Assembly (NCBI GenBank): GCA_045632845.1
Contig: JAZQXL010000012.1
Coordinates: 13,816-77,815, forward strand
Source of the DNA: Alphaproteobacteria bacterium
GTDB taxonomy: Bacteria; Pseudomonadota; Alphaproteobacteria; CAAHEQ01; UBA3637
DNA length: 64,000 nt
Direction: 5' to 3'
The notes under the pieces: model-generated
What the model was told of the DNA's origin: nothing
Database searches by the model: none
The model's input: only the letters and a program-made list of their open reading frames with translations
Shown: positions 796 to 50,960 of the stretch, one piece after another
How the letters are laid out: each line of letters begins with the position of its first letter
Position numbering within the stretch: position 1 is the stretch's first letter
Made by a program: the position numbers and the translations under genes

Positions 796-2325
796 TTAAA
801 TATTTTTTCCTTTTCTGTTTTTTAACAAAGCAACTATTAAAATTATTAAAACAAGTGTTAGAGGAATCTTGTTCCCATAAATGGAATACAACGTCCTTTT
901 TCCCGCACGGGGTAAGGGCGAATCTAAAACCCCTTTTTCACCCAAATCCAATGAGGAAATAATTTCACCATAAGGATTTATAACAGCACTCACTCCATTA
1001 TTTGTTGCTCGAATAAGCGGTAATCCTTCTTCAACAGCACGCATTTGTGCAATACTCAAATGTTGATATGGTCCTGCTGAAATACCATACCACCCATCAT
1101 TTGTTAAATTTAATATCCATTCTGGTCTTTTTTTCTTATCCACAACTTCTGATGGAAAAATAACCTCATAACAAATCAATGGGGAAACTGGCGGGGCTTT
1201 AGGAATATACATTGTTTTAACCCCTTCTCCTTTATTAAAATCAGAAGGAATGGGTACCAATTTATCAATTTTTAACACATCCCGAAAAGGTACATATTCT
1301 CCAAAAGGAACCAAATGTGATTTATCATAATACCCTTGAATATTTGACAAGTGATCAAACACAAAAAGAGAATTAGCCAATTGTCTTTTCGATAAATCAA
1401 CAACCCTTAATGCTCCCGCTAATAATGTGCCCCCTTGACGAACAGCACTCATCAAACGCAAACGTGCTGTTTCATCAATTTCTGGATAATATGGCATTGC
1501 GGATTCTGGCCAAACAACATGTGTTATTTTATCATTGTTTTCTTTCGACAAAGAAATAAGAGTTGAAAAATTTTCTTCCGCACGTTCAGGATCCCATTTT
1601 AATGACTGTTTAATGTTTGGTTGAACCAATCTTAATTGGACCCCCCAAACCATTTCTTTGGGAGATTCATATATGTGAAATGCCCCACCTAAAAAACTCA
1701 AGCACATAACAACCAACAGTGTTAAAAAATATCTTTTTTGAGGAAGCAAAGCTAATGACGTAAAAAATAAAAGAGTCAGCAAAGATAAACCATAAACACC
1801 TGCTAATCCTGCAAGTTGCAACATTTCTGGAGAGATAGTCCAAATATTACCAATCAAATTCCAAGGAAAACCTGTAAAAAGCCAACTTCTAACCCATTCA
1901 AAAAAAACAAAAAAAGCACAAAAAGAAAGCCATCTTGAAACAGATGTTTTAAAAAAAGAAGCACAAGAAGCAGGAAGAGCAAAAAACAAACCCAAAAATA
2001 ATCCCAATCCCAAAAGAGCTAAAGGAATGAGAAATTGATACGCTCCACCGTCAACCAAAAGAGCATGACAAATCCAATTAAGTGATCCAACACCTAATCC
2101 TGCTCCAAACAAAAAAGATAAACACGTTATTTTCTTCTTCGATGTTTCTATATTTATCAAAAACATCAAAACGCTTAAACCAACAGCTAAAATTGGAACA
2201 TAAAAATAAGGTGCAAATGCATAACTTGATAAATATCCTAATGCAAAAAGAAGTATATTTTTTTTCAAAAAAGAATGCTTTTTAAAATTTTTTTCAATAA
2301 GAGATTTTATCTTTAATTGACACAT
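796..2325 (-). CDS. lnt: apolipoprotein N-acyltransferase
   Basis: 509 aa. The N-terminal half is a polytopic membrane domain and the C-terminal half is a CN-hydrolase domain (VVWPESA...E...C.E). This is the typical Lnt architecture. Confidence 0.85.
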   Translation of the reverse strand: MCQLKIKSLIEKNFKKHSFLKKNILLFALGYLSSYAFAPYFYVPILAVGLSVLMFLINIETSKKKITCLSFLFGAGLGVGSLNWICHALLVDGGAYQFLIPLALLGLGLFLGLFFALPASCASFFKTSVSRWLSFCAFFVFFEWVRSWLFTGFPWNLIGNIWTISPEMLQLAGLAGVYGLSLLTLLFFTSLALLPQKRYFLTLLVVMCLSFLGGAFHIYESPKEMVWGVQLRLVQPNIKQSLKWDPERAEENFSTLISLSKENNDKITHVVWPESAMPYYPEIDETARLRLMSAVRQGGTLLAGALRVVDLSKRQLANSLFVFDHLSNIQGYYDKSHLVPFGEYVPFRDVLKIDKLVPIPSDFNKGEGVKTMYIPKAPPVSPLICYEVIFPSEVVDKKKRPEWILNLTNDGWYGISAGPYQHLSIAQMRAVEEGLPLIRATNNGVSAVINPYGEIISSLDLGEKGVLDSPLPRAGKRTLYSIYGNKIPLTLVLIILIVALLKNRKGKNI

Positions 2326-2334
2326 TAAATTATC

Positions 2335-5420
<3,086 letters not shown>

Positions 5421-5424
<4 letters not shown>

Positions 5425-7235
5425 TTTTCAGAATTTCCCATTTCATCAGCAAGTTCTTTAACAACCTTTGAAAGTTTTTCTTTCGTTTCATCTGTTAAAT
5501 CGTTTGTTGAAGCAATACTTTCTAAAATATCTGGATGTTTTGTTTTGATTAATTCTTGTAATTTTGTTTCAAACAAAGAAACTTTATCTAAATCAATTTC
5601 ATCCAAATATCCGTTCACACCTGCAAAAATTGAAATTACCTCTTCAGGCATTGAATAAGGCTGATACTGTTTTTGTTTCATAATTTCAGTTAAACGAGAA
5701 CCACGATTTAATAACGCTTGTGTTGCTGGATCAAGATCTGATGAAAATTGTGAAAAGTTCATCACTTCACGATATTGTGCCAAATCCAACTTTAACGAAC
5801 CTGCAACCTTTTTCATCGCTTTACTTTGAGCAGCAGATCCCACACGACTAACAGATAAACCAACGTTAATAGCAGGTCTAACCCCTTGCAAAAATAAATT
5901 AGATTCTAAGAAAATCTGACCATCTGTAATTGAAATAACGTTTGTTGGAATATAAGCAGACACATCTCCTTCTTGTGTTTCAATAACAGGAAGAGCCGTT
6001 AAAGAACCACCGCCATTTTCTTGACTAAGTTGTGCCGCTCTTTCAAGTAATCTAGAGTGCAAATAAAAAACATCCCCAGGATATGCTTCACGACCTGTTG
6101 GTCGTTTTAACAATAAAGACATTTCACGATAAGCAACGGCATGCTTTGATAAATCATCATAAAAGACAATAGCATTCATCCCATTATCTCTAAAATATTC
6201 TCCAATTGTGCAACCAGCATATGGTGCCAAATATTGCATTGCAGCACTATCGGATGCTGTTGCAGAAACAATCACCGTATAATCCAAAGCGCCTTTTTCT
6301 TCCAATGTGCGCATAATATCTCGAACAGTTGATTGTTTTTGACCAATTGCCACATAAATACAGAATAATTTTTCTTTATCAGGCAAAATAGCATTCTTTT
6401 CTTTTTGACTTAAAATTGTATCTAAGATAATTGCTGTTTTACCAGTTTGTCTATCGCCAATAATCAACTCACGTTGTCCACGCCCAATTGGAACCAATGC
6501 ATCAATTCCCTTAATTCCTGTTTGGATTGGCCTGTTCACAGAACTTCTTGCAATAATCCCAGGAGCTGGTGCCATAACAGGGTGATGAGGCAAATCTTTT
6601 AAAGATGATTTTCCATCAATAGCTTCACCCAATGGATTTAATACTCGACCCAACAACTCCATACCAACAGGAACTGTATTCATTTGTTGAGTTCTTGTTA
6701 CCAATGCACCTTCTTTAATATTTTGGGCATTATCAAAAATAACAATATCTACCACATCAGGATTTAAATTCAAAGCCATCCCATGTTGACCAGATTCAAA
6801 AACAACACGTTCACCAGCAGCAATCGTTTTTAATCCCTCAACTCTTGCAACACCATCAGAAACTGAAAGGACTTTTCCAACTTCTTTAACTTGCGTTTTT
6901 TCTTCAAACGCATCCACAGATTGAGAGAAAATAGATGCGATTTTATTCACGTCAATGGCTTGAGAAACCTTTGTTTCAATCTCTTTTTGAAATACTGCCA
7001 ATTGACCTTTTACCGAAGAATCAATCAAAAGGGAGTCCACATTCAATGTTAAACCACCAAGCAAAGCGGGATTCACTTTAACTTGCAACATAAAGTTGTC
7101 ATCTTTTAAAATATGAGCTAGTTTTTTTCTTAATGTATCCAATTGTTTTTCGGACAAAGAAACAGCAGACTCAACCTCTATATATCTTGTTGTTTCCGTT
7201 GTTTCATTCATTGTTGTTTCTGTCTTTTCAGCCAT
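5421..7235 (-). CDS. atpA: F0F1 ATP synthase alpha subunit with an in-frame N-terminal fusion to the C-terminal domain of the delta (OSCP) subunit
   Basis: Residues ~95-604 are a canonical alpha subunit (P-loop GDRQTGKTA). Residues ~17-90 ([66 protein letters not shown]) match the C-terminal domain of delta/OSCP. No stop codon separates the two parts. The ATG at 7235 has an AAAGGA Shine-Dalgarno 10 nt upstream. Confidence 0.8.
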
Positions 7236-7417
7236 AGCAAATCAATCCTTTAAATTTATTATAAAAAAATAATGACTTCTTGTAACACAAAAAACCTAAA
7301 GTTGCAAGCCATTAGAGCTCTTTTTCAATTAAAAAAACAGCCCACAACAATAAGTGAGCTGTTAAAAACATAAATTTGACTTACACAAAAAAAATCAAGA
7401 TAAAAATCTTCTTTCAC

Positions 7418-7693
7418 TTATTTAGAAAGTTGATAACCTTCGTAATAATCTTTACCCTTACGTACATTATTTGCTTCTTCTAAACCATATTTATTCACTT
7501 TTTTACCCAAGCGAACAGAAGCATCTGAAAAATCACCCCATAAAGATCTAACGCTGTACACATAACCAGATAATTGACGATCTACTTTTTGACAAGCTTC
7601 TTTTGGAGTAATCCCCATAAAAAACCAAACAGCTAAAAGGAATGCTCCAATATGGATTGCCAACCACTTTAATATAGGTATAAATTTTTTCAT
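7418..7693 (-). CDS. small membrane protein (hypothetical, one predicted TM helix)
   Basis: 91 aa with one hydrophobic helix (LAIHIGAFLLAVWFFMGI). It is not delta-like. Confidence 0.4.
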   Translation of the reverse strand: MKKFIPILKWLAIHIGAFLLAVWFFMGITPKEACQKVDRQLSGYVYSVRSLWGDFSDASVRLGKKVNKYGLEEANNVRKGKDYYEGYQLSK

Positions 7694-7764: not shown

Positions 7765-8439
7765 ATGAAAAAAATTAAAATCGGCGATATATATATCGAA
7801 TTTATCAAACGACAAAACCAAAAAACCATTCGCCTTACGCTTAACAAAAACAATCAAATTGTTTTATCCGCACCTTACTTTTGCTCTGAAAAAAAAGCAA
7901 TTGATTTTGCCACACAACACCAAGACTGGATAAAAAAACACACCACTGATAAACAAGAAAAAACTTTTAATAATCAGGATACTGTTTCAATTTTAGGCAC
8001 AAATTATAAAATCATCCATAGCCCAGAGTATCCAAGTTACATAACCCTTAAAGAAAACACTATTTTTATTGGTGGGGAAGAAAAATTTATCCATAGAAAA
8101 GTTTCAAATCTTGCACAAAAAGAACTATTAAAATACATTCAAAAAAAAGCTCATGAAATGGGCAAAAAAATTAACAAACAACCCAAAAAAATCTCTTTAA
8201 AAAACACCACATCAAGGTGGGGAAGCTGTTCTTCAAAAGGTAATTTAAATTTTTGCTGGAAAATTAGTTTTGCACCACTTTATGTTGTTGATTATCTCAT
8301 CGCACATGAGGTTTCGCATTTAAAAGAAATGAATCATAGCCATAAATTTTGGCAAACAGTCTCAACCCTCAACGTACAACAAGCTGAGGCCGAAATTTGG
8401 CTCAGAAAAAATGGAAAAAACATTATCTCAATTAAATAA
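7765..8439 (+). CDS. YgjP/DUF45-family metal-dependent hydrolase (WLM/SprT-like HExxH)
   Basis: 224 aa. The C-terminal motif HEVSHLKEMNHSHKFW (HExxH...H) follows an SRWGSC segment, as in YgjP-like zinc hydrolases. Confidence 0.65.
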   Translation: MKKIKIGDIYIEFIKRQNQKTIRLTLNKNNQIVLSAPYFCSEKKAIDFATQHQDWIKKHTTDKQEKTFNNQDTVSILGTNYKIIHSPEYPSYITLKENTIFIGGEEKFIHRKVSNLAQKELLKYIQKKAHEMGKKINKQPKKISLKNTTSRWGSCSSKGNLNFCWKISFAPLYVVDYLIAHEVSHLKEMNHSHKFWQTVSTLNVQQAEAEIWLRKNGKNIISIK

Positions 8440-19201: not shown

Positions 19202-20254
19202 ATGGGTGGATTATTCGAAAAAATTTCAGCGCTTATCACTCAAAAACCCCCTCAACAAAATACTGAGGGCAGTGTTTTGACCATGCAAGAAAGTAAATTT
19301 CACCAATCAGTTCGAAACAACAATTTTGGACAAGTTCACAGCGAAGTAACCCGTGGTTTTGATATAAATTCAAAAAACATTTATGGGAAAACAGGGCTTG
19401 AAATTGCAGCTGAAACTGGCAACATCCAAATGGTTAAGCATCTTGCCTCCCTTGGTGCTAATGTAACAATGCAATCACCCAATGGGGATGGACCTCTTTT
19501 AATAGCTGCTCATCATGGAAATATTGATATGCTATACACACTTGTTAACTTAGGTGCCAACATTAACAAACCAAATTCATATGGTGAAACTATTTTACAT
19601 AAATTTTCAATTAATCAAGAAAAAGATGCTTATACTCATCAAGAATTATTAAATTTAGGGGCCAACATTGAAGCAAGAGATATTTATGGAAAAACACCAC
19701 TTCATCACCAAGTAGGGGCTAACAGTGAAGATACGGTTTATCAATTACTTTCATTTAATGCAAATGTAAATGCACGTGATAAAGAAGGAAGAACTCCCCT
19801 TTATGATGCCGTTACATATGGAAACAACAATATTTTCGAAACACTTTTAAGTTTTAATCCAAATGTTAATATTCCTGACAAAAATGGCTCAACCCCAGTA
19901 CACGTTGCAGCACAAACAAACAATTCCCACTTTATAAAACGTCTTGTTGAACAGGGGGGGAACATCAATGCACGTGATGCGTATGGCCAAACACCCTTTC
20001 ACTATGCTGTTGCAGCTGGCAACGTTGAAGCAGCCTCAATGTTGATAAAAATGGGTGCAAATCCACATATTCGTGATAGCTTAGGTCAAACCCCACTTAG
20101 TAAAGCACCAAATCAACAAGTTTTGACAAAAATGAAATTGTTAATCCAAGATCAAAAAACACCAAATCTTTCTACTTCTCTTGCAAACAATGGGATGCCT
20201 TATCAAGAAAGAATAGGTACTCTATCTCAAAACAATCGTTTCAATGAACAATAA
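19202..20254 (+). CDS. ankyrin-repeat protein
   Basis: 350 aa with at least 7 tandem ANK repeats (G.TPLH.A...G....V..L...GA..N....). There is no signal peptide, so it is a candidate secreted effector. Confidence 0.85.
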   Translation: MGGLFEKISALITQKPPQQNTEGSVLTMQESKFHQSVRNNNFGQVHSEVTRGFDINSKNIYGKTGLEIAAETGNIQMVKHLASLGANVTMQSPNGDGPLLIAAHHGNIDMLYTLVNLGANINKPNSYGETILHKFSINQEKDAYTHQELLNLGANIEARDIYGKTPLHHQVGANSEDTVYQLLSFNANVNARDKEGRTPLYDAVTYGNNNIFETLLSFNPNVNIPDKNGSTPVHVAAQTNNSHFIKRLVEQGGNINARDAYGQTPFHYAVAAGNVEAASMLIKMGANPHIRDSLGQTPLSKAPNQQVLTKMKLLIQDQKTPNLSTSLANNGMPYQERIGTLSQNNRFNEQ

Positions 20255-41051: not shown

Positions 41052-44000
41052 TTAGAAGTTTTGTTTTAACTTCATCATACCACCATGTTCTTGATAGGAT
41101 TTTCTAAATGATCCCAAGTATTCAACAGAAAGGGTAGTAAGATCTCCAAGTTCTGCATCAATACCCAAATTGACATTTGTGCTAAATCTATCAAGTGCAT
41201 TTCCTTCTGCGGTATACACAGCACCATTAGAAAGTGTATTAATTGAACCCGTATCATCTGAAATAATATCATATCCAAACATTACACCTGCTGTTGGTCT
41301 GATATAAAGCCCGTGAACTGTTTTGTACGGAGCACGAATATCAATTCCTGCCATTGCAGTCATATAGCGATAAGTGTTGTTATCAATATGTGTATCTAAT
41401 GAATCAACATATGCTTCTTGGTTGATATCCATATATTTCAAACCAAGCTTTGGTGTGATAATTAAGTCACGGCAGCTAAAGTCATATCCTGCCATTGCTT
41501 GAACAGCAAAAGTATCCACATTATACATCCCATCAGATGCTGTTGAAAGAATGTTTTTTGACTCCTCATATTGTGAACGAGAATAACTGACAACACCTTC
41601 GACAAACCATTTGTTTGGTTGATATCTTGCAAAAGCAAAACCTGTGTTTGTTTGTGCTGTTGTATCACGACCAGATTGAGCAATATCTGCATACCCATAT
41701 GCATAACCAACACCCACAGTTAATGTATCTGTAATTTGTTTTTGAATACCAGCCACAAAACCTGTTTCGTTTGCTTTGAAATCACCTTTGTCATCATATT
41801 TTGCATGCCCATAAAGTGCTTTTACCCAAACTTGTGCATTTTGTGTTTCATCACCACCTGAGGTACCTTCAACTTTTGAAGATAATTTAACTTGGTCACT
41901 CACCGCATCTGTGATACCTTTAAAGTGTGATGAGGCAATTGATTGAACAACTGGAGAAACATTTCCACCTAAATTGTCAAGAGCTTTTACAGCCTTTTTA
42001 ATTAATGCTGCATTTCCAGATTGCAAATGTTCAATCAACTCTGTTTGAGCTTTGTTGAACAATTCATTTGTTCCACGCCCTTCATGCAATGCGATAATGG
42101 CAGCTGTTTGATTTTTATCAGAACCATATTGATTTGAAATTTTAGAACTATCTTTTGAAATGAATGAATATCTACCATCTTCTAAATCTAAGAAATTGAA
42201 ACCTTCATCATTATGTACTGCTGTTGGCAATGATGAAATGGCATCCATTTTAAGAACATTGTATAATCCCATTTCAAAATTTTCACCTAGGTCAAAATCA
42301 ATTTTAGAATCTTCTTCAGAAATTAAATTTGTACCTATCAATGAACCATAATCAGAACGATCATTCAACTGAACATTTAATGTTGAACCATTTTCTAATG
42401 TAATTTCTTGTGCGGTTACATCAATATTTCTGATATCAAGATTTGTATCATTTTGAACAGTTAAATTTGCAACTTCAATTGTTTTGATATCTTCACCAAA
42501 CTGCATATTATTGCTGACAAGATTATTAGATGTTGCAAAACCGTCTTTTACGTTCAATGTAGCACCATTCATGGTCAATGTACCATTACCTGTTAATGCA
42601 TTTGTAATTGAAAGATTACCTGTTGCAATCATTTGGTTGTTATTTTCAACAGAAGCAAATGTTGAATTATCAACATTTATTGTTCCTAAGTTTGAAGCAT
42701 TTTCAATCACAGAATTACCTTGAACGGTTAAAGTTCCCGTTCCTTTATTTTCAACAGTTGTAACCATTGAACCTGTTAACGTAGCATTACCAGTATTATC
42801 AAGAGAGGTGATTGTATCTTCTGTTGATGTTAAACTGTTGTTGTTTGTAACAGTACCCAACTTGGAGTTACTTGATGTTAACTTACCATCATTTGTGATT
42901 GTATCAACATTTGTAACACCTGATAATGTTGTGTTGCCATCTTGAGCATTATTAAGCGTTTTAATTGTACCACCTGTTGCTGTGAGTGTTCCGTTATTAA
43001 CAGTTAATAAACCAACTGTTGTATTAGTTAACCCTGTTGTTCCATCTTGGTTTGTCAACGTTGTGATAGAACCACCTTCTACCGTTAACGTACCACTGTT
43101 TGTAAGTGTTGCAACAGTTGTATCTGTTAACGTAGCACCACCAGTATTATCAAGTGACGTGATTGTATCTTCTGTTGATGTTAAACTGTTGTTATTTGTA
43201 ACAGTACCCAACTTAGATTTACCTGATGTTAATACACCATCATTTGTGATTGTATCAACATTTGTAACACCTGATAATTTTGTGTTACCATCTTGAGCAT
43301 TATTAAGTGTTTTGATTGTACCACCTGTTGCTGTGAGTGTTCCTTTATTAACAGTTAATGAACCAACTGTTGTATTGGTTAACCCTGTTGTTCCATCTTG
43401 GTTTGTCAACGTTGTGATAGAACCACCTTCTACCGTTAACGTACCACTGTTTGTAAGTGTTGCAACAGTTGTATTAGTTAACCCAGCACTACCAGTATTA
43501 TCAAGTGAAGTGATTGTATCTTCTGTTGATGTTAAACTGTTGTTGTTTGTAACAGTACCCAACTTAGATTTACCTGATGTTAATACACCATCATTTGTGA
43601 TTGTATCAACATTTGTAACACCTGATAATTTTGTGTTACCATCTTGAGCGTTATTAAGTGTTTCAATTGATCCACCTGTTGCTGTAACTGTTCCTTTATT
43701 CACTGTTAATGTACCAACAGTTGTATCAGTTAACCCTGCTGTTCCATCTTGGTTTGTTAAAGTTGTGATAGATCCACCCTCGGCAACAAATGTTCCTTCG
43801 TTTGTAACACCTTGCAAATTGCTGTTAGAAGATTTCATCGTTCCACTATTTGCAAGTAAAGCATTCGCATCATTGATTTGAACATTGTTTAATACCAAAC
43901 CATACTCACCACTTGTGGATAAATTATCAATAACAACTGTTGGTGCTGTGTTTGCTAAAGTGTCAATAATAACATTATCAAGAATAGCATTGCCATTTGT

Positions 44001-47000
44001 CATTGTTAAAATAGATATTGCATTTTTAATTGTTAAATCTTGAACAGTTAATTTTGTACTTGCATCTGAGACTTCAAACATACTGTGATTATTTGCATCA
44101 ATAATACTTGCACTGGCATCTCCTGCAACAGCACCAAGGATTAATTTTTCACCAATCCCTGTTGCACCCAAATCTGAAGTCATTTGATATGTTGAACCTG
44201 TTTCTCCATCAACAGACATATAGAAATTACTATTCCCTGCATATTGGTTAATATGGGTTAAAGAATTACCATCTGTCGTTTTGAATGCTTTTAATTCAAC
44301 AGTTTGCAAATCATCTGAGATAATTGCATTATATGTATAAGCATTTGTCACAGCATTAAATGATGTTGAACCTTTTAATGCATCTGCAAATGTAGCATTA
44401 CCTTGCAAAACTTGAACGGTGTAACTTGTTGATGTGCCATCATCTTTGTTTGCATCTTGATTATTAACCCCTGTTGGCACAACTTTGAAATTTGCATTTG
44501 CAACAACAAAAGCATTGTCACCAGTTACATTCAACACATCTGATTTTGCAATCACACCATTAAATCCACCATCAATAGCATTTGAAACAAGACCAATATC
44601 AACCGCTAATGTTGTATTGCTTCCTGCAACATTTTGCATATTCACAACTGAATAAATATCATCTTGCATATTGATGGTTGAATTATCAAATTGATATGTT
44701 TCACCAGCATATTCGTTTGCTGTCAACTGAACAGTTGCATTGTCAAATTTAATCAAATCTTCTACTGTTCCAGAACCCATGTCAGTCAATGTATATGTCC
44801 CATTTTTGAATGAAATCGTTGAAGTTCCAACTTCCCCATCTGACAAAACAATTTTGTTTGCATTGTGGACAACTGTTTCATCTGATGTGGTTGATTCAAA
44901 TGAAATTATACCATTTCCTGTTGCTGTTGCAGTGTATCCAATTGTATCGCCTTTTGTTTCAAGTATACCACCTGAAATTGTGTTTACTCCTTGGAAGAAG
45001 TTTTCACTATCTGCAATTGTTTTTCCACCTGTTTGATTAAATTCACCTGTGAATGTTTTTACATTTTCACTTCCAAAAGTTAAATTGCCTGAATTGTTAA
45101 TAGTGCCGGCACCCTCAATTGTTCCAGCAAAGTGAACTGCCCCAGATAAATTCATTTCACCTTGATGAGAGATATTAGAAAAAGACGTATTGTTTGCATT
45201 TAATGTTGCACCAGACAAAACATTTGTATCTCCAGTAACTGAAAGTGTATTAGCAACACCATTTAAAGAAACGCTCCCTCCATTTACATTCAAGTTTGTA
45301 AGAGCTGTATTGGTTAATTTAGCTGTTCCATCTTGGTTTGTCAATGTTGTGATAGATCCACCGTTAGCTGTTAATGCACCACTGTTTGTAAGTGTTGCAA
45401 CAGTTGTATCTGTTAACTCAGCACCACCAGTATTATCAAGTGACGTGATTGTATCTTCTGTTGATGTTAAACTGTTGTTATTTGTAACAGTGCCCAACTT
45501 AGATTTACCTGATGTTAATACACCATCATTTGTGATTGTATCAACATTTGTAACATCTGATAATTTTGTGTTACCATCTTGAGCATTATTAAGTGTTTTA
45601 ATTGTACCACCTGTTGCTGTAACTGTTCCTTTATTAACAGTTAATGAACCAACTGTTGTATCAGTTAACCCTGTTGTTCCATCTTGGTTTGTTAAAGTTG
45701 TGATAGATCCACCGTTAGCTGTTAATGCACCACTGTTTGTAAGTGTTGTAACAGTTGTATTAGTTAACTCAGCACCACCAGTATTATCAAGTGAAATAAT
45801 TGTATCTTCTGTTGATGTTAACACGCCTTTATTTGTTACAACACCAAGTGTTGAGCTATTGCTTGCTAAAGAACCACTATTTTCGACATCTTTAAATGAA
45901 ACATTGGTTGCGTTTAATTTGCCATCTGTTGCAATGGTTGTTTTTCCACCAACTGTTAAAGGGGTTGTTGTACCAATCAAACCAACTACCCCACCTGTTA
46001 CATCTAATACTCCAGATATAGTTGTATCTATTAAGGTTGTACTCCCTGCAGTGTTCAACAAAGAAGAAATTGATCCACCATTTGTTGTGAAAGACCCACT
46101 GTTTTCAACAGATGTTAATGTAGAATTTACACCATTAAATCTGCCTGAGTTTATCAAGTCTTTTAATGTGCTATTTTGAACATTCATAGCCCCTGAGTTT
46201 TCAATCAAATCTTCAGCATCTTGAATGTGAACATTTTTTAAAACAAGCCCATAAGTTGTATCATCCCCTGCAGCGTTTGACATAATTGGATTTGCAACTA
46301 AATTGCCATTCTCAAGCCCAACATTTGTTGTGTTATGAATCCAGACATTTTCAAAAGTTGTTGTACCTGCACCTTGCGCTGTTGTTAAAACAGAACTTGT
46401 ATCTGTGATTGCAACATCTTTTACCGTTAAATTTGTATCGGCATTTGATACATCAAACATCGAATAGCCATTAGCATCAATGGTACTTTTGATAATGTTC
46501 GATCCATCTGTATAACCTTGAACAAGCTTGTTTCCTGTGCCTGTTGTACCCAAAGATGAATTCATTTCATATCTTGAATCAAGATTTGTCATATAAAAAG
46601 CACTATCCCCTGTATACTGATTAACAGCTCTTAATGAATCGCCATTTGCAGCTTGAATTGCCGTTAACTCAATTGTTTGAGAATCTTTTAATCCCACATT
46701 ATATTGATAGACATCTGTTGAAACAAGAGCACTGTTTATTGGAGTGTTAAATGTGACACCTTCCAAAACCTTTTTAGAAATGCTTGTTGTTAAACCGCTA
46801 TCTAACTGAACATTGTTAATAATCTGAACTTTTGTTAAATCCAAATCAAAAGAAGATGTATTACTTGGATTTAAAACTGTGATTGTATCTGAACCCAAAG
46901 CTAATGTGCCATCTGTATTTTTTGAAAGTTTAACGTCAAATGCTAAATCTGTGTTAGAAAGGAAAAGATTATCTCCTGTAAATTGAATATTGCTTAACCC

Positions 47001-50000
47001 ATTTCCTCTCAAATCAACTGTTGTATCATTAAAACTGTATGTTTCACCAGCATATTCGTTTGCTGTCAATTGAACTGTTGCATTGTCAAACTTGATTAAA
47101 TCTTCTGCTGTTCCAGAACCCATATCAGCCAATGTATATGTCCCATTTTTGAATGAAATCGTTGAAGTTCCATTTTGCACATTTGATAAGACAATTTTGT
47201 TTGCATCGTGGACAACAGATGTATCTGAAGAAGTTGATTCAAATGAAATTGCACCACGCCCTGTAGCTGTTGCAGTATATCCAATTGTATCGCCTTTTGT
47301 TTCAAGTATACCACCTGAAATTATGTTTGATTTTTGGAAGAAGTTGTTGCTATCTGCAATTGTTTTACCATCTGTTTGGCTAAATGTACCAACATATTTT
47401 GTATTATCCGCAGCACCTAAAATCAAATTGCCAGAATTTGTGATACTTCCAGTACCAGAGACACCTCCTGTCAACTGAATATCTCCAGACAAATTTGTTT
47501 TCCCTTGTCCTGAAAGCAAACCAGTCACAATGGAATCCGTTAATGTAACTGAGCCCAGATCATTTGTTAACCCTGCTATTGAACTATCAGTTGCGGTAAA
47601 ATTCCCTGCAACAATAACATCAGAAAAAGCTGTCCTGTCAGCTGTTAAATCTGTGCCAGTTGCGACGGTTGTTTTCCCAGAAACAACTGTATCCTCTAAA
47701 GCAACATCACCCCCCGTGATTCCCAATGCTCCAGTGATTTGAGTAGAGGTCAAATCAGCTTTACCACCTGTGTTTGCTAAACTTGCAAGAGAACCACCAA
47801 GAATGGTCAAATCACCGCTGTTTGTAAGACCTTGCATTGTAGCATTTACTGCATTTAATGTACCAGCATTTTCAACGGCTGAAAGGCTTGCATTGTTTGT
47901 TGCTAAAAGTGTACCATTAGCGCCAACAGTTGTTTTACCATTGATGATGGAACCATTTAAATCAACATCGCCACCTGTAATAGCAAGAGAACCATTGACA
48001 CCAGCAGACATTAAAGTTGCTGTTCCATTCGTATTGCTCAAACTTTCTAATGTACTATCTGTTGCTGTAAAAGTTCCTGCATTTTCAACACCAGCTAAAC
48101 TTGTACCATTCGTTGCTGAAAGTTTTGCAGCTGCTCCAACAATTGTTTTGCTGATAACAACAGTATCATCCAAATTAACTGTTCCGCCTGTGGCTGTAAT
48201 TGTGTTATCAACATGTGCAGAACTTAAAGTTGCTGTTCCATTCGTATTGCTCAAACTTTCTAATGTACTATCTGTAACTGTAAAAGTTCCTGCATTTTCA
48301 ACTGTTGCAAATCTTGTGTTGTTTGTTGCCAAAAGAGTACCATCAGCTCCAACAGTCGTTTTGTCAGCAACAGTTACACCATCTAAATCAACTGTTCCAG
48401 CTGTTGCATTTAAAGTTCCATTAACTTTAGTCGATGTTAAAGCAGCTGTTCCACCACTGTTTGTTAAACTTGCAAGTGAACCCCCATTGGCTGTGAAAAT
48501 TCCTGCATTTTCAACAGCTGCAAATGTTGTATTGTTTATTGCTGAAAGGGAACCATCAGCTCCAACTGTTGTTTTTCCACCAACAGTTGCTCCGTCTAAA
48601 TCAACCGTTCCGCCTATTACATCTAAAGTACCAGTAATTGCAGCATCTGTTAAAGCAGCTGTTCCACCAGTATTTATTAAACTTGCAAGTGAACCACCAT
48701 TGACTGTAAAATCTCCTTCATTTTCAACATTTTCAAACGTTGTATTGTTTGTTGCCAAAAGAGTACCATCAGCTCCAACAGTCGTTTTGTCAGCAACAGT
48801 TACACCATCTAAATCAACCGTTCCGCCTGTTGCATTTAAAGTTCCATTAACTTTAGTCGATGTTAAATCAGCTGTTCCACCTGTATTTGTTAAATCTGTA
48901 AGTGAACCACCATTGGCTGTAAAAGTTCCCGCATTTTCAACATCTGCAAATGTTGTATTGTTTATTGCTGAAAGGGAACCATCAGCTCCAACTGTTGTTT
49001 TGTCAGCAACAGTTGCACCATCTAAATCAACCGTTCCGCCTGTTGTATTCAAAGCACCAGTAATTGCAGTATCTGTTAAAGTCCCTGTTCCACTAGTATT
49101 TGTTAAATCTGCAAGTGAACCCCCATTGGCTGTGAAAGTTCCTGCATTTTCAACACCTGCTAAACTTGTACCATTCGTTGATAAGAGTGTACCATCAGCT
49201 CCAACTGTTGTTTTTCCACCAACAGTTGTTCCGTCTAAATTAACTGTTCCAGCTGTTGCATCTAAAGGTCCATTAATTTGAGTCGATGTTAAAGTTGCTG
49301 TTCCACCACTGTTTGTTAAATCTGTAAGTAACCCCCCATTGGCTGTGAAAGTTCCTGCATTTTCAACGTCTGAAAGACTTGTGTTGCCTGTTGCTGAAAC
49401 TTTACCATTGGCACCAACAGTTGTTTTTCCATCAACAGTTGTACCATGTAAACTAACAGCTCCGCCTGTTACATCTAAAGCACCAGTAATTGTAGCATCT
49501 GTTAAACTTGCTGTTCCACCTATATTTGTTAAATCTGTAAGTGAACCACCAGTAACACCAAGCCCCCCCCATTCATTTAAAACATGTTGCATTACAGTAT
49601 TTGTTGCCGTTAAGTTTCCACTATACGATAAATTCGTATCTCCAGAAATTTCAACATCAGTCAAATTTGTAAGACCCAAACCTTGAACGTTTAAAGCACC
49701 AAGAGTCCCTCCTTGAATGGTTAAAGAACCACCATTTATAACATTTTGCATTGCAACATCAACTGCATTTAATGCTGCGCCAAAACCAACTGTTGTTTTA
49801 TCAGCAACAGTTGCACCATCTAAACTAACAGTTCCCCCTGTTACATCTAAAGCACCAGTAATTGTAGCCTCTGTTAAAGTCCCTGTTCCACTAGTGTTTG
49901 TTAAATCTGTAAGTGAACCACCATTGGCTGTGAAAGTTCCTGCATTTTCAACATCTGCAAATGTTGTATTGTTTGTTGCTGAAAGGGAACCTGATGTTCC

Positions 50001-50960
50001 AACAGTCGTTTTGTCAGCAACAGTTGCACCATCTAAATTAACAGTTCCACCTGTTACATCTAAAGTACCAGTAATTGTAGCCTCTGTTAAAGTCCCTGTT
50101 CCACTAGTGTTTGTTAAACTAGCAAGTGAACCACCATTGGCTGTGAAAGTTCCTGCATTTTCAACATCTACAAATGTTGTATTGTTTGTTGCTGAAAGGG
50201 AACCATCAGCTCCAACAGTCGTTTTGTCAACAACAGTTGAGCCATCTAAATTAACCGTTCCTCCAGAGACCATAACAGCACCAAAAAAAACTTCATCACC
50301 TTCAAGTATTGTGTTTGTTAAATTAGCTATGCCGGCAGAATTGCCCAAAAAGGTAAACGTACTATTCGTCGCATCAAACATTCCATCATTTTCAACACCA
50401 GCATCAAGTGCCACATTCTCAAAACTAACTTTTCCTCCATTATTAGAAACAGATACAGGCTTTAGTGGAACAAGGTTTTCTAGCACAAAATCCGAATTAA
50501 CTATAGCTATATTTTTAAAAGTCGCCGCACCACCTTCATTAACCCTCACAACACTATTCGCATTTTTAATGGTTAAATCTTGAACCGTCAAATGACCACT
50601 TGTTGCATCTACATTAACATTCAAAAAGTTTCCGTTAGCATCTAAAACATAATCAGTGCTGTTGATGGCACCTAAGGCATTATCTGCCCCTTGAATAACC
50701 TTATTCCCCGCACCAAATGTGCCTAATGTGGATCCATCTAAATCAGCATCAGTAACCGTATAAGTATTATCCACCCCTTGAACTGAAATATCAAAAACAC
50801 CATCACCCTCTGAACGAGCAAATTCACCCAACGTTGTTGCTGATGCTGCATTCACAGCAAGTGAACTTGCGATAATCACTGCATTTAGATATGCGCATTT
50901 TTTTAAGATATCTAAATATCTGGATTTGAGTTCTTTGATGGCGGTGCGGGACAGTTTCAT
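41052..50960 (-). CDS. giant classical (type Va) autotransporter adhesin with triplicated repetitive passenger domain
   Basis: 3302 aa. Extended autotransporter signal peptide (MKLSRTAIKELKSRYLDILKKCAYLNAVIIASSLAVNAASA). Passenger built from 55-aa and 110-aa T/G/N/L-rich tandem repeats plus three copies of a pertactin-like head module. C-terminal ~300 aa is a 12-strand beta-barrel translocator ending ...KLKQNF. Hairpin terminator at ~41010-41045. Confidence 0.85.
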   Translation of the reverse strand: MKLSRTAIKELKSRYLDILKKCAYLNAVIIASSLAVNAASATTLGEFARSEGDGVFDISVQGVDNTYTVTDADLDGSTLGTFGAGNKVIQGADNALGAINSTDYVLDANGNFLNVNVDATSGHLTVQDLTIKNANSVVRVNEGGAATFKNIAIVNSDFVLENLVPLKPVSVSNNGGKVSFENVALDAGVENDGMFDATNSTFTFLGNSAGIANLTNTILEGDEVFFGAVMVSGGTVNLDGSTVVDKTTVGADGSLSATNNTTFVDVENAGTFTANGGSLASLTNTSGTGTLTEATITGTLDVTGGTVNLDGATVADKTTVGTSGSLSATNNTTFADVENAGTFTANGGSLTDLTNTSGTGTLTEATITGALDVTGGTVSLDGATVADKTTVGFGAALNAVDVAMQNVINGGSLTIQGGTLGALNVQGLGLTNLTDVEISGDTNLSYSGNLTATNTVMQHVLNEWGGLGVTGGSLTDLTNIGGTASLTDATITGALDVTGGAVSLHGTTVDGKTTVGANGKVSATGNTSLSDVENAGTFTANGGLLTDLTNSGGTATLTSTQINGPLDATAGTVNLDGTTVGGKTTVGADGTLLSTNGTSLAGVENAGTFTANGGSLADLTNTSGTGTLTDTAITGALNTTGGTVDLDGATVADKTTVGADGSLSAINNTTFADVENAGTFTANGGSLTDLTNTGGTADLTSTKVNGTLNATGGTVDLDGVTVADKTTVGADGTLLATNNTTFENVENEGDFTVNGGSLASLINTGGTAALTDAAITGTLDVIGGTVDLDGATVGGKTTVGADGSLSAINNTTFAAVENAGIFTANGGSLASLTNSGGTAALTSTKVNGTLNATAGTVDLDGVTVADKTTVGADGTLLATNNTRFATVENAGTFTVTDSTLESLSNTNGTATLSSAHVDNTITATGGTVNLDDTVVISKTIVGAAAKLSATNGTSLAGVENAGTFTATDSTLESLSNTNGTATLMSAGVNGSLAITGGDVDLNGSIINGKTTVGANGTLLATNNASLSAVENAGTLNAVNATMQGLTNSGDLTILGGSLASLANTGGKADLTSTQITGALGITGGDVALEDTVVSGKTTVATGTDLTADRTAFSDVIVAGNFTATDSSIAGLTNDLGSVTLTDSIVTGLLSGQGKTNLSGDIQLTGGVSGTGSITNSGNLILGAADNTKYVGTFSQTDGKTIADSNNFFQKSNIISGGILETKGDTIGYTATATGRGAISFESTSSDTSVVHDANKIVLSNVQNGTSTISFKNGTYTLADMGSGTAEDLIKFDNATVQLTANEYAGETYSFNDTTVDLRGNGLSNIQFTGDNLFLSNTDLAFDVKLSKNTDGTLALGSDTITVLNPSNTSSFDLDLTKVQIINNVQLDSGLTTSISKKVLEGVTFNTPINSALVSTDVYQYNVGLKDSQTIELTAIQAANGDSLRAVNQYTGDSAFYMTNLDSRYEMNSSLGTTGTGNKLVQGYTDGSNIIKSTIDANGYSMFDVSNADTNLTVKDVAITDTSSVLTTAQGAGTTTFENVWIHNTTNVGLENGNLVANPIMSNAAGDDTTYGLVLKNVHIQDAEDLIENSGAMNVQNSTLKDLINSGRFNGVNSTLTSVENSGSFTTNGGSISSLLNTAGSTTLIDTTISGVLDVTGGVVGLIGTTTPLTVGGKTTIATDGKLNATNVSFKDVENSGSLASNSSTLGVVTNKGVLTSTEDTIISLDNTGGAELTNTTVTTLTNSGALTANGGSITTLTNQDGTTGLTDTTVGSLTVNKGTVTATGGTIKTLNNAQDGNTKLSDVTNVDTITNDGVLTSGKSKLGTVTNNNSLTSTEDTITSLDNTGGAELTDTTVATLTNSGALTANGGSITTLTNQDGTAKLTNTALTNLNVNGGSVSLNGVANTLSVTGDTNVLSGATLNANNTSFSNISHQGEMNLSGAVHFAGTIEGAGTINNSGNLTFGSENVKTFTGEFNQTGGKTIADSENFFQGVNTISGGILETKGDTIGYTATATGNGIISFESTTSDETVVHNANKIVLSDGEVGTSTISFKNGTYTLTDMGSGTVEDLIKFDNATVQLTANEYAGETYQFDNSTINMQDDIYSVVNMQNVAGSNTTLAVDIGLVSNAIDGGFNGVIAKSDVLNVTGDNAFVVANANFKVVPTGVNNQDANKDDGTSTSYTVQVLQGNATFADALKGSTSFNAVTNAYTYNAIISDDLQTVELKAFKTTDGNSLTHINQYAGNSNFYMSVDGETGSTYQMTSDLGATGIGEKLILGAVAGDASASIIDANNHSMFEVSDASTKLTVQDLTIKNAISILTMTNGNAILDNVIIDTLANTAPTVVIDNLSTSGEYGLVLNNVQINDANALLANSGTMKSSNSNLQGVTNEGTFVAEGGSITTLTNQDGTAGLTDTTVGTLTVNKGTVTATGGSIETLNNAQDGNTKLSGVTNVDTITNDGVLTSGKSKLGTVTNNNSLTSTEDTITSLDNTGSAGLTNTTVATLTNSGTLTVEGGSITTLTNQDGTTGLTNTTVGSLTVNKGTLTATGGTIKTLNNAQDGNTKLSGVTNVDTITNDGVLTSGKSKLGTVTNNNSLTSTEDTITSLDNTGGATLTDTTVATLTNSGTLTVEGGSITTLTNQDGTTGLTNTTVGLLTVNNGTLTATGGTIKTLNNAQDGNTTLSGVTNVDTITNDGKLTSSNSKLGTVTNNNSLTSTEDTITSLDNTGNATLTGSMVTTVENKGTGTLTVQGNSVIENASNLGTINVDNSTFASVENNNQMIATGNLSITNALTGNGTLTMNGATLNVKDGFATSNNLVSNNMQFGEDIKTIEVANLTVQNDTNLDIRNIDVTAQEITLENGSTLNVQLNDRSDYGSLIGTNLISEEDSKIDFDLGENFEMGLYNVLKMDAISSLPTAVHNDEGFNFLDLEDGRYSFISKDSSKISNQYGSDKNQTAAIIALHEGRGTNELFNKAQTELIEHLQSGNAALIKKAVKALDNLGGNVSPVVQSIASSHFKGITDAVSDQVKLSSKVEGTSGGDETQNAQVWVKALYGHAKYDDKGDFKANETGFVAGIQKQITDTLTVGVGYAYGYADIAQSGRDTTAQTNTGFAFARYQPNKWFVEGVVSYSRSQYEESKNILSTASDGMYNVDTFAVQAMAGYDFSCRDLIITPKLGLKYMDINQEAYVDSLDTHIDNNTYRYMTAMAGIDIRAPYKTVHGLYIRPTAGVMFGYDIISDDTGSINTLSNGAVYTAEGNALDRFSTNVNLGIDAELGDLTTLSVEYLGSFRKSYQEHGGMMKLKQNF
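43280..46520. repeat. tandem ~330-bp (110-aa) coding repeats inside the autotransporter gene, in two blocks (about 45860-46520 and 43280-44570; approximate)
   Basis: Protein unit: LTSTEDTITSLDNTGGAELTDTTVATLTNSGALTANGGSITTLTNQDGTTGLTDTTVGSLTVNKGTVTATGGTIKTLNNAQDGNTKLSDVTNVDTITNDGVLTSGKSKLGTVTNNNS, repeated about 2 + 3.5 times. Antisense ORFs 42982..43296 and 43312..43647 have near-identical translations, confirming the DNA-level repeat. Confidence 0.6.
47960..50270. repeat. tandem ~165-bp (55-aa) coding repeats inside the autotransporter gene, ~14 copies (approximate bounds)
   Basis: Protein unit: TFTANGGSL(A/T)DLTNTSGTGTLT(E/D)ATITGALDVTGGTV(N/D)LDGATVADKTTVGADGSLSATNNTTFADVENAG, reiterated with minor variation. 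Confidence 0.6.

Follow-up and report, generated by a model that had tools for sequence, protein, structure and literature searches.

What becomes of the peripheral stalk of an ATP synthase when subunit delta is reduced to its C-terminal domain and that domain is joined to subunit alpha is the question raised by the F1 operon in the 64,000-nt stretch of contig JAZQXL010000012.1 analyzed here (the whole stretch is referred to as the window). On the (-) strand, which also carries the neighboring F1 genes, the operon is led by a single unbroken open reading frame (ORF) of 604 aa at 5421..7235 in which a delta C-terminal domain (delta-C) stands in frame ahead of a complete alpha subunit, the polypeptide having no delta N-domain (a deltaΔN-alpha fusion gene, 'atpHA'). 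The best explanation of this gene is that it would encode a functional F1 alpha subunit bearing the b-binding domain of delta on its N-terminus instead of a separate delta subunit.

Architecture of the fusion protein

The preliminary description of this locus had placed an ATG preceded by a ribosome-binding site at 7235, and indeed a Shine-Dalgarno-like AAGGA (7250..7246) lies 10 nt before that codon. Its other coordinates and sequence excerpts were likewise all correct. A longer N-terminus is impossible because an in-frame TGA (7244..7242) lies two codons upstream of the ATG. The Pfam family OSCP (PF00213) matched aa 5-85 with 58 bits against a cut-off of 22.3, over profile positions 92-171/172 only, and the six-helix N-domain of delta (profile positions ~1-90) is thus not in the fusion. 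The N-terminal part has the alpha/beta fold of the delta/OSCP C-terminal domain and is predicted to bind b. The Pfam domains of alpha follow at aa 116-182 (ATP-synt_ab_N), 240-463 (ATP-synt_ab) and 470-594 (ATP-synt_ab_C), and the NCBIfam model for atpA, TIGR00962, aligned its positions 2-499 to aa 94-597 with 759.8 bits, above its F-type alpha equivalog cut-off of 484.45, so that the protein counts as a canonical atpA product. The three-domain fold of alpha, consisting of a beta-barrel, a P-loop nucleotide-binding domain with GDRQTGKT and a helical C-terminal domain, is present by Pfam and by Foldseek matches to F1 alpha subunits (E ~1e-54). The Pfam and TIGR00962 matches on one 604-aa ORF confirm the central claim of the preliminary description, that a delta subunit cut down to its C-terminal, b-binding domain is fused in frame to a complete alpha.

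The delta segment aligned to residues 101-169 of E. coli delta and to the delta C-domains of Bacillus PS3, chloroplast, Chloroflexus and mycobacteria, which means that the truncation coincides with the hinge joining the six-helix N-domain to the C-domain. An AlphaFold2 (AF2) model of the chain (mean predicted local distance difference test score, pLDDT, 70.7; ~72-76 in delta-C) gave delta-C strands at 17-23, 48-54, 62-66 and 69-72 and helices at 29-43 and 75-90, followed by the alpha N-terminal helix at 96-108.

Among all PDB sequences, the only chain collinear with the fusion over both delta-C and alpha was 9jc1_I, entitled 'ATP synthase delta subunit, ATP synthase subunit alpha' (query 23-591 to chain 10-568). 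Across the junction the two aligned for 135 residues without a gap, from delta-C through the linker and the alpha N-helix into the beta-barrel, and in a Foldseek search with the AF2 model 9jc1 likewise ranked first and gave the longest alignment, of 575 columns. 9JC1 is an engineered Bacillus PS3 FoF1 in which delta residues 2-104 were deleted and delta-C was fused to alpha (Nat Commun 2025;16:5410, PMC12229609). These alignments show that, at the level of primary structure, the window fusion matches the engineered architecture residue-for-residue in spacing. In both, the delta N-domain is cut at the hinge and delta-C is joined to the alpha N-terminus by a short linker. The window protein differs in being natural and alphaproteobacterial (~52% identical in the Foldseek alignment), in having an extra N-terminal tail of 13-16 aa, and in carrying ETKVSQA at the place of the GGSGG of the construct. 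The stalk that it partners would be b/b' instead of b2, and the operon encodes a gamma with a 62-aa insertion and a full-length epsilon.

Other known arrangements of the stator were compared with the window operon. PF00430 (ATP-synt_B) had no match in the fusion protein, which is thus not a Mycobacterium-type b-delta fusion. The mycobacterial protein (PDB 7JG5 chain d) is likewise a stator-stalk gene fusion involving delta and gave a weak match to the delta-C part; however, it joins full-length delta to b and is present once per complex, whereas the partner in the window is alpha, present in three copies, with no b domain. The N-ATPase operon shares the lack of a separate delta gene, but the window operon has the canonical alphaproteobacterial order HAGDC and retains delta-C. 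Identity with an N-ATPase was ruled out, the fusion scoring 575.3 bits with the alternative F1F0 alpha model TIGR03324 (NCBIfam), below its cut-off of 750.5, and the gene order being fusion-G-D-C and not of the atpDCQRBEFAG type.

Conservation and lineage of the fusion

A word-indexed search with the first 150 aa returned seven metagenomic proteins with the same continuity from delta-C to alpha, 54-99% identical to the query. In a scan of one genome per GTDB species the fusion was found in 18 species genomes, all uncultured 'Alphaproteobacteria bacterium' metagenome-assembled genomes (MAGs) bar one labeled Lactobacillales; the sources named for these MAGs are the guts of roe deer, yak, sheep, water buffalo and rabbit. 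An intact ORF of 598-636 aa, closely preceded by a stop codon, was present in 16 of the 18. The two exceptions were L015, interrupted by an N-run, and L018, a 1.6-kb contig with a 1-nt frameshift after ...SFDD (1100..1130) and an intact alpha in the +2 frame; this frameshift is probably an assembly error. The best 120 clusters of a whole-protein search were 60-100% identical and 561-638 aa long, bar truncated entries of 431 and 506 aa, and PF00213 was present together with the alpha domains in every one of them except the 431-aa partial P0253. A 100% identical NCBI protein, P0162, lies on a 121.5-kb NCBI contig. The name given to these fusion proteins at NCBI is plain 'F0F1 ATP synthase subunit alpha'.

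Ratios of nonsynonymous to synonymous substitution (dN/dS; pairwise Nei-Gojobori) were 0.04-0.11 for delta-C, 0.03-0.37 for the linker and alpha N-helix, and 0.02-0.06 for the alpha core. Judged by its codons, delta-C is a selected, translated domain under strong purifying selection.

Several sequences in these sets call for separate comment. In a divergent relative (L020 3286..5106; L021 3277..5097) the alpha part contains an in-frame TGA (QTG*KVVDAL) at a position that is Leu or Ile in relatives, and a 234-aa upstream product ending at this TGA is recorded on three contigs. The codon may reflect a pseudogene, read-through or a shared error; it was rejected as a sign of genetic code 4, the position not being Trp. 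Locus L016 (CAYPVK010000004.1) and protein P0249 are labeled 'Lactobacillales bacterium' yet carry the alphaproteobacterial type of fusion operon, the label likely being a binning or taxonomy error. Three candidates were not counted as fusions: P0015 and P0073, which comprise the delta 3' end, the intergenic region and alpha and are read-through or partial gene calls, and P0057 (453 aa, JGI), in which an SRP54-type GTPase domain follows alpha residue ~340, indicating a chimeric contig.

The solved structures closest to the alpha core are mitochondrial and Paracoccus alpha subunits (E 1e-185 to 1e-198, 60-62% identity), those of Bacillus PS3 (1e-174) and E. coli (1e-159) being more distant. The window gamma is nearest to Paracoccus gamma, and the nearest unfused delta found belongs to a Hyphomicrobiaceae MAG. 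In Alphaproteobacteria the F1 genes usually stand apart from the Fo genes, as they do here. The nearest matches of alpha, gamma and unfused delta, together with this F1/Fo split, argue for an alphaproteobacterial origin of the operon. The window alpha is only ~47-51% identical to three other fusion proteins, P0102, P0071 and P0097. These similarities suggest that the fusion arose independently and in situ, apart from the Firmicute-type fusions. An alphaproteobacterial atpH-atpA pair would have lost two-thirds of atpH from its 5' end (encoding the six-helix N-domain), the atpH stop codon and the intergenic spacer.

A natural delta-alpha fusion without the N-domain has been described for Acidaminococcus fermentans (UniProt D2RLW6), with G4Q3K6 and A0A1I2C5T3 as further entries (PMC12229609). 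The window shares with it the delta-C-to-alpha fusion and the missing delta N-domain. The Acidaminococcus fusion lies in an atp operon (Suppl Fig 9, PMC12229609), and the Firmicute-type fused operons compared here are unified (a-c-b-fusion), whereas the window genes form a split F1 operon. The window alpha, gamma and delta-C are of the alphaproteobacterial/mitochondrial type. What is new is a large alphaproteobacterial gut lineage with the fusion; the fusion type is already known, having been noted in passing for Acidaminococcus.

Related arrangements were seen in further loci. An Eubacterium sp. MAG (L025) has a unified operon a-c-b-[deltaC-alpha] with no delta gene. In L024 (8001..10262), the 753-aa P0102 is a triple fusion of b (PF00430, aa 3-125), delta-C (aa 164-245, OSCP positions 95-170) and alpha; its cluster has 32 members, one of which is recorded on 158 contigs. 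The complete L024 operon reads a-c-b-[b-deltaC-alpha]-gamma-beta-epsilon, a free b gene being kept. As predicted from its domain order, the b-deltaC-alpha triple fusion would fix one b per alpha, which strongly suggests three stalks; no mention of such a triple fusion was found in the literature searched. In other lineages full-length delta (OSCP profile ~10-172) is fused to alpha, as in P0071 (676 aa), which is present on several NCBI and Logan contigs, and P0097 (699 aa).

Peripheral stalk number and alternative explanations

The H+/ATP ratio of ATP synthases has long been held to depend on the size of the c-ring alone. The gene architecture shows that each alpha3beta3 hexamer should carry three covalent delta-C domains and no delta N-domain for the three-fold axis. 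Normally, the delta N-domain sits on the pseudo-threefold axis and holds the number of stalks to one (PMC12229609). The engineered PS3 fusion was found to bind up to three b2 stalks with one a-subunit each, and its biochemical stoichiometry averaged ~2 stalks and ~2 a-subunits; its H+/ATP ratio rose from 3.0 to 5.8, and the equilibrium proton motive force (pmf) fell from 133 to 68 mV (PMC12229609). By analogy, each delta-C of the window enzyme would dock the C-termini of one b/b' stalk, and two or even three peripheral stalks, with an a-subunit apiece, could form on one enzyme. More ions would then be moved per rotation, raising H+/ATP and lowering the pmf needed for ATP synthesis, and for the enzyme working as a pump the gear ratio would be altered. 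A raised ion/ATP ratio would be plausible in low-energy, anaerobic gut habitats.

Two further lines bear on this model. The authors of the engineered enzyme consider Acidaminococcus fermentans and the two further UniProt entries 'highly likely' to have multi-stalk enzymes (PMC12229609). The natural F1Fo of Chloroflexus was solved with two stalks and two a-subunits, its shortened delta N-domain forming a dimer (PMC12002316). There, too, a changed delta N-domain lifts the one-stalk limit and delta-C docks a b dimer on the F1 head; however, the Chloroflexus delta is a separate 157-aa protein with a four-helix N-domain, present as delta2, whereas the window has no N-domain and its delta-C is covalently attached to alpha. 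The preliminary description had seen a 3:1 stoichiometry problem in a delta-C/alpha fusion. That objection falls away because in the engineered counterpart each fused alpha takes one b2 stalk, so that exactly the three delta-C domains of each F1 are put to use (PMC12229609). Its option of a genuinely re-engineered peripheral stalk is the one favored by the conservation, the selection and the equivalence to 9JC1. By analogy with the engineered enzyme, a functional fusion that would allow more than one stalk is given a probability of about 0.6.

Several points weigh against this reading. Alphaproteobacterial stalks are b/b' heterodimers, unlike the b2 of Bacillus. The AF2 model is of moderate confidence, covers a single chain and is silent on the complex. 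The search for Fo genes and a stand-alone atpH covered only the 64-kb window and 23 related loci of ~20 kb or less each. On sequence evidence, cleavage at the junction after translation could occur. Stalk number, a-subunit number and H+/ATP are values from the engineered PS3 fusion that would extend to the window by analogy, and cryo-EM showed even that enzyme chiefly with one or two stalks (PMC12229609). A fuller proposal is put forward tentatively, at somewhat less than an even chance: that a clade of gut Alphaproteobacteria natively runs a multi-stalk, multi-a F1Fo with an ion/ATP ratio raised two- to three-fold, independently of the Firmicutes and maybe co-adapted with the gamma insertion and a small membrane protein encoded beside the operon.

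The alternative that survives best, although unlikely, is a single-stalk enzyme of ordinary H+/ATP in which the fusion is a covalent tether replacing the contact between the delta N-domain and alpha. One of the three delta-C domains would engage b/b', owing to limiting b and a, sterics or the order of assembly, and two would be idle. The window itself gives no hint of how many stalks there are, since the Fo genes lie in a separate locus outside it, and single-stalk particles were the commonest cryo-EM class of the engineered enzyme (PMC12229609). The authors of that work, however, put the scarcity of three-stalk particles down to stalk loss in grid preparation, and the average of ~2 stalks and ~2 a-subunits with a doubled H+/ATP was reached by their enzyme without further adaptation (PMC12229609). 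Moreover, the known limiter of stalk number is gone with the symmetry-breaking delta N-domain, and the triple fusion of another lineage fixes one b per alpha.

It is considerably less probable that a full-length delta encoded elsewhere in the genome makes the usual single stalk, leaving the fused delta-C an accessory or regulatory element or a relic of folding or assembly. The queries of a phmmer search were the delta P0008 from Hyphomicrobiaceae and the a, b, c and delta subunits of E. coli, run at single-sequence sensitivity against all six-frame segments of the window and the 23 loci (~360 kb together). No delta N-domain, second delta, or a, b or c subunit was detected in these, the fusion genes being the sole matches; a, c and b are present in the Firmicute-type loci L024 and L025, which lie outside the 23. 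As this search reached no further than the 64-kb window here and ~20 kb or less surrounding the operon in relatives, some room is left for a distant atpH. Against it, a delta-C word search of 5.8 billion proteins returned a single unfused delta, that of the Hyphomicrobiaceae MAG, and the fusion fills the canonical place of atpH in the atpHAGDC operon. Fused lineages with a single operon have no delta gene, and Acidaminococcus fermentans is reported to lack the N-domain (PMC12229609). An axial delta N-domain and three tethered delta-C domains would, in addition, compete for the b/b' ends and the alpha N-termini.

Slimmer still is the chance of two products, through an internal start near codon 97 or cleavage in the linker, which would yield ordinary alpha with free delta-C or a minority of delta-C-alpha and restore the 1:3 ratio. 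In most orthologs a codon close to the ancestral start of alpha does encode Val or Met, with ATG at this place in L006, L011 and L012 and aligned two codons upstream in L013, L014 and L017. The internal GTG start (~6948) considered in the preliminary description was nevertheless ruled out: codon 97 (~6947; GTG in the window) reads GTG, GTA, GTT, ATG or GCA across orthologs, L016 having GCA and several species GTA or GTT, and is thus not conserved as a start, nor was a Shine-Dalgarno-like motif found at a functional distance from it in any ortholog compared. A free delta-C would need a stop codon, and because none lies between delta-C and alpha, delta-C can be made only within the fusion protein; nor is a separate alpha to be expected, given the unconserved codon and the missing Shine-Dalgarno motif. 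The engineered fusion, moreover, assembles and works uncleaved (PMC12229609).

Two further options of the preliminary description, an artefact of assembly or frameshift and the decay of atpH during genome reduction, were rejected and are scarcely credible despite the frameshift in L018 and the in-frame TGA in L020 and L021, since the identical architecture recurs in independent assemblies from many hosts and studies, including 16 of the 18 species genomes, is kept in more than 100 protein clusters down to 60% identity, has a delta-C whose dN/dS denotes strong purifying selection, and begins at a clean boundary, the delta N/C hinge.

Operon context and significance

The features of the fusion gene and its surroundings are collected in Table 1. 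The F1 operon runs fusion-gamma-beta-epsilon, its genes overlapping or nearly abutting, with no delta gene; the fusion takes the place of atpH plus atpA in the usual alphaproteobacterial atpHAGDC operon.

Table 1. Segments of the fusion gene and features of the F1 operon and its upstream region; positions are those of the window.
Feature	Position (strand)	Evidence
N-terminal tail, aa 1-16, variable, probably disordered	7188..7235 (-)	pLDDT 29; unconserved in orthologs
delta/OSCP C-terminal domain, aa 17-90	6966..7187 (-)	Pfam, alignments, AF2, dN/dS; motif L-GG...D-SVKGQL conserved
Junction and retained alpha N-terminal helix, aa 91-115; linker ETKVSQA	6891..6965 (-)	9jc1_I alignment, codon table, helix 96-108
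alpha core: beta-barrel, nucleotide-binding (Walker A GDRQTGKT) and C-terminal helical domains	5421..6890 (-)	Pfam, NCBIfam, structure matches
atpG (gamma), 362 aa	4336..5424 (-)	Pfam, NCBIfam, alignment to Paracoccus gamma
atpD (beta), 486 aa	2864..4324 (-)	Pfam
atpC (epsilon), 178 aa, ~22-aa N-terminal extension	2335..2871 (-)	Pfam, NCBIfam
Candidate sigma-70-like promoter of the F1 operon, GTTACA-17-TATAAT	7258..7286 (-)	Consensus scan, 10/12 matches; weak
Intrinsic-terminator-like hairpin and T-run, closing the upstream small-protein gene	7336..7363 (-)	1 found vs 0.1 expected
91-aa single-pass membrane protein, syntenic with the F1 operon	7418..7693 (-)	No Pfam/NCBIfam match

The 182-nt gap upstream of the fusion ATG has stops in the fusion frame, and neither its translation nor six-frame phmmer revealed coding potential for a delta N-domain, in agreement with the preliminary description. 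An Rfam search of the gap gave nothing meaningful (best E 0.4).

The preliminary description had called gamma unusually long. Two insertions set it apart from Paracoccus gamma: one of 62 aa (aa 212-272), free of cysteine and placed between Paracoccus residues 198 and 204, and one of 10 aa (aa 63-72). The long gamma is kept across the clade (353-364 aa in L008, L019, L020 and L023). The longer insertion falls in the loop ahead of the C-terminal helix, the place of the regulatory insertion by which chloroplast and cyanobacterial gamma restrict ATP hydrolysis. An obligatory partnership with the fusion was ruled out, the fused Firmicute-type operon L024 having a normal 286-aa gamma. The suspected N-terminal extension of epsilon is real, and ~30 extra C-terminal residues were also seen relative to the family profile; epsilon of deeper relatives is 136-146 aa long.

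The gene upstream of the gap was correctly described as encoding a 91-aa transmembrane protein; it is single-pass and matches no family. Orthologs of ~91-115 aa closely precede the fusion, on its own strand, in at least 12 species or loci (L001 6864..7136, L004 9543..9857, L012 9502..9822, L014 9525..9845, L017 235..561, L018 321..635, L023 6054..6368 and others) and share the motifs W-x-(L/F)LG-x-x-P-x-E and G-x-DPY(E/Q). In the more divergent L019, a 98-aa ORF with a weak match to the family profile (E 9e-4) ends 7 nt before the fusion gene; in the window, the terminator-like hairpin separates the two genes. The protein could be an operon-linked accessory, or the arrangement could merely be conserved gene order with a divergent YgjP-like gene (7765..8439). 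It was rejected as a substitute for the delta N-domain or b, having no family match and ~60 soluble residues, too few to span F1, and being absent beside the operon in L008 and in Firmicute-type operons.

Elsewhere the window consists of core chromosomal genes (dnaN-recF-gyrB, dnaK-dnaJ, lnt, amiC, typA) and includes a 3302-aa ORF at 41052..50960 (-) and a 350-aa ankyrin-repeat protein at 19202..20254 (+). The ankyrin repeats hint at a host-associated lifestyle.

The prior basis for a natural fusion route was three UniProt entries in one discussion section (PMC12229609). The same design is now seen fixed and under selection among gut Alphaproteobacteria, where it spans at least 18 species and more than 100 protein clusters, and variants, namely the b-deltaC-alpha triple fusion and full-length delta-alpha fusions, turned up as well. 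Present annotation names the fusions 'subunit alpha' or 'subunit delta, partial', and because of such plain names metabolic reconstructions will score delta as missing. With concrete operons that can be expressed, natural multi-stalk ATP synthases and a fermentative gut adaptation to low pmf become testable. If the proposed reading is true, these bacteria would possess a natural "re-geared" ATP synthase, convergent with the design engineered in 2025, in the class of the mitochondrial ancestor.

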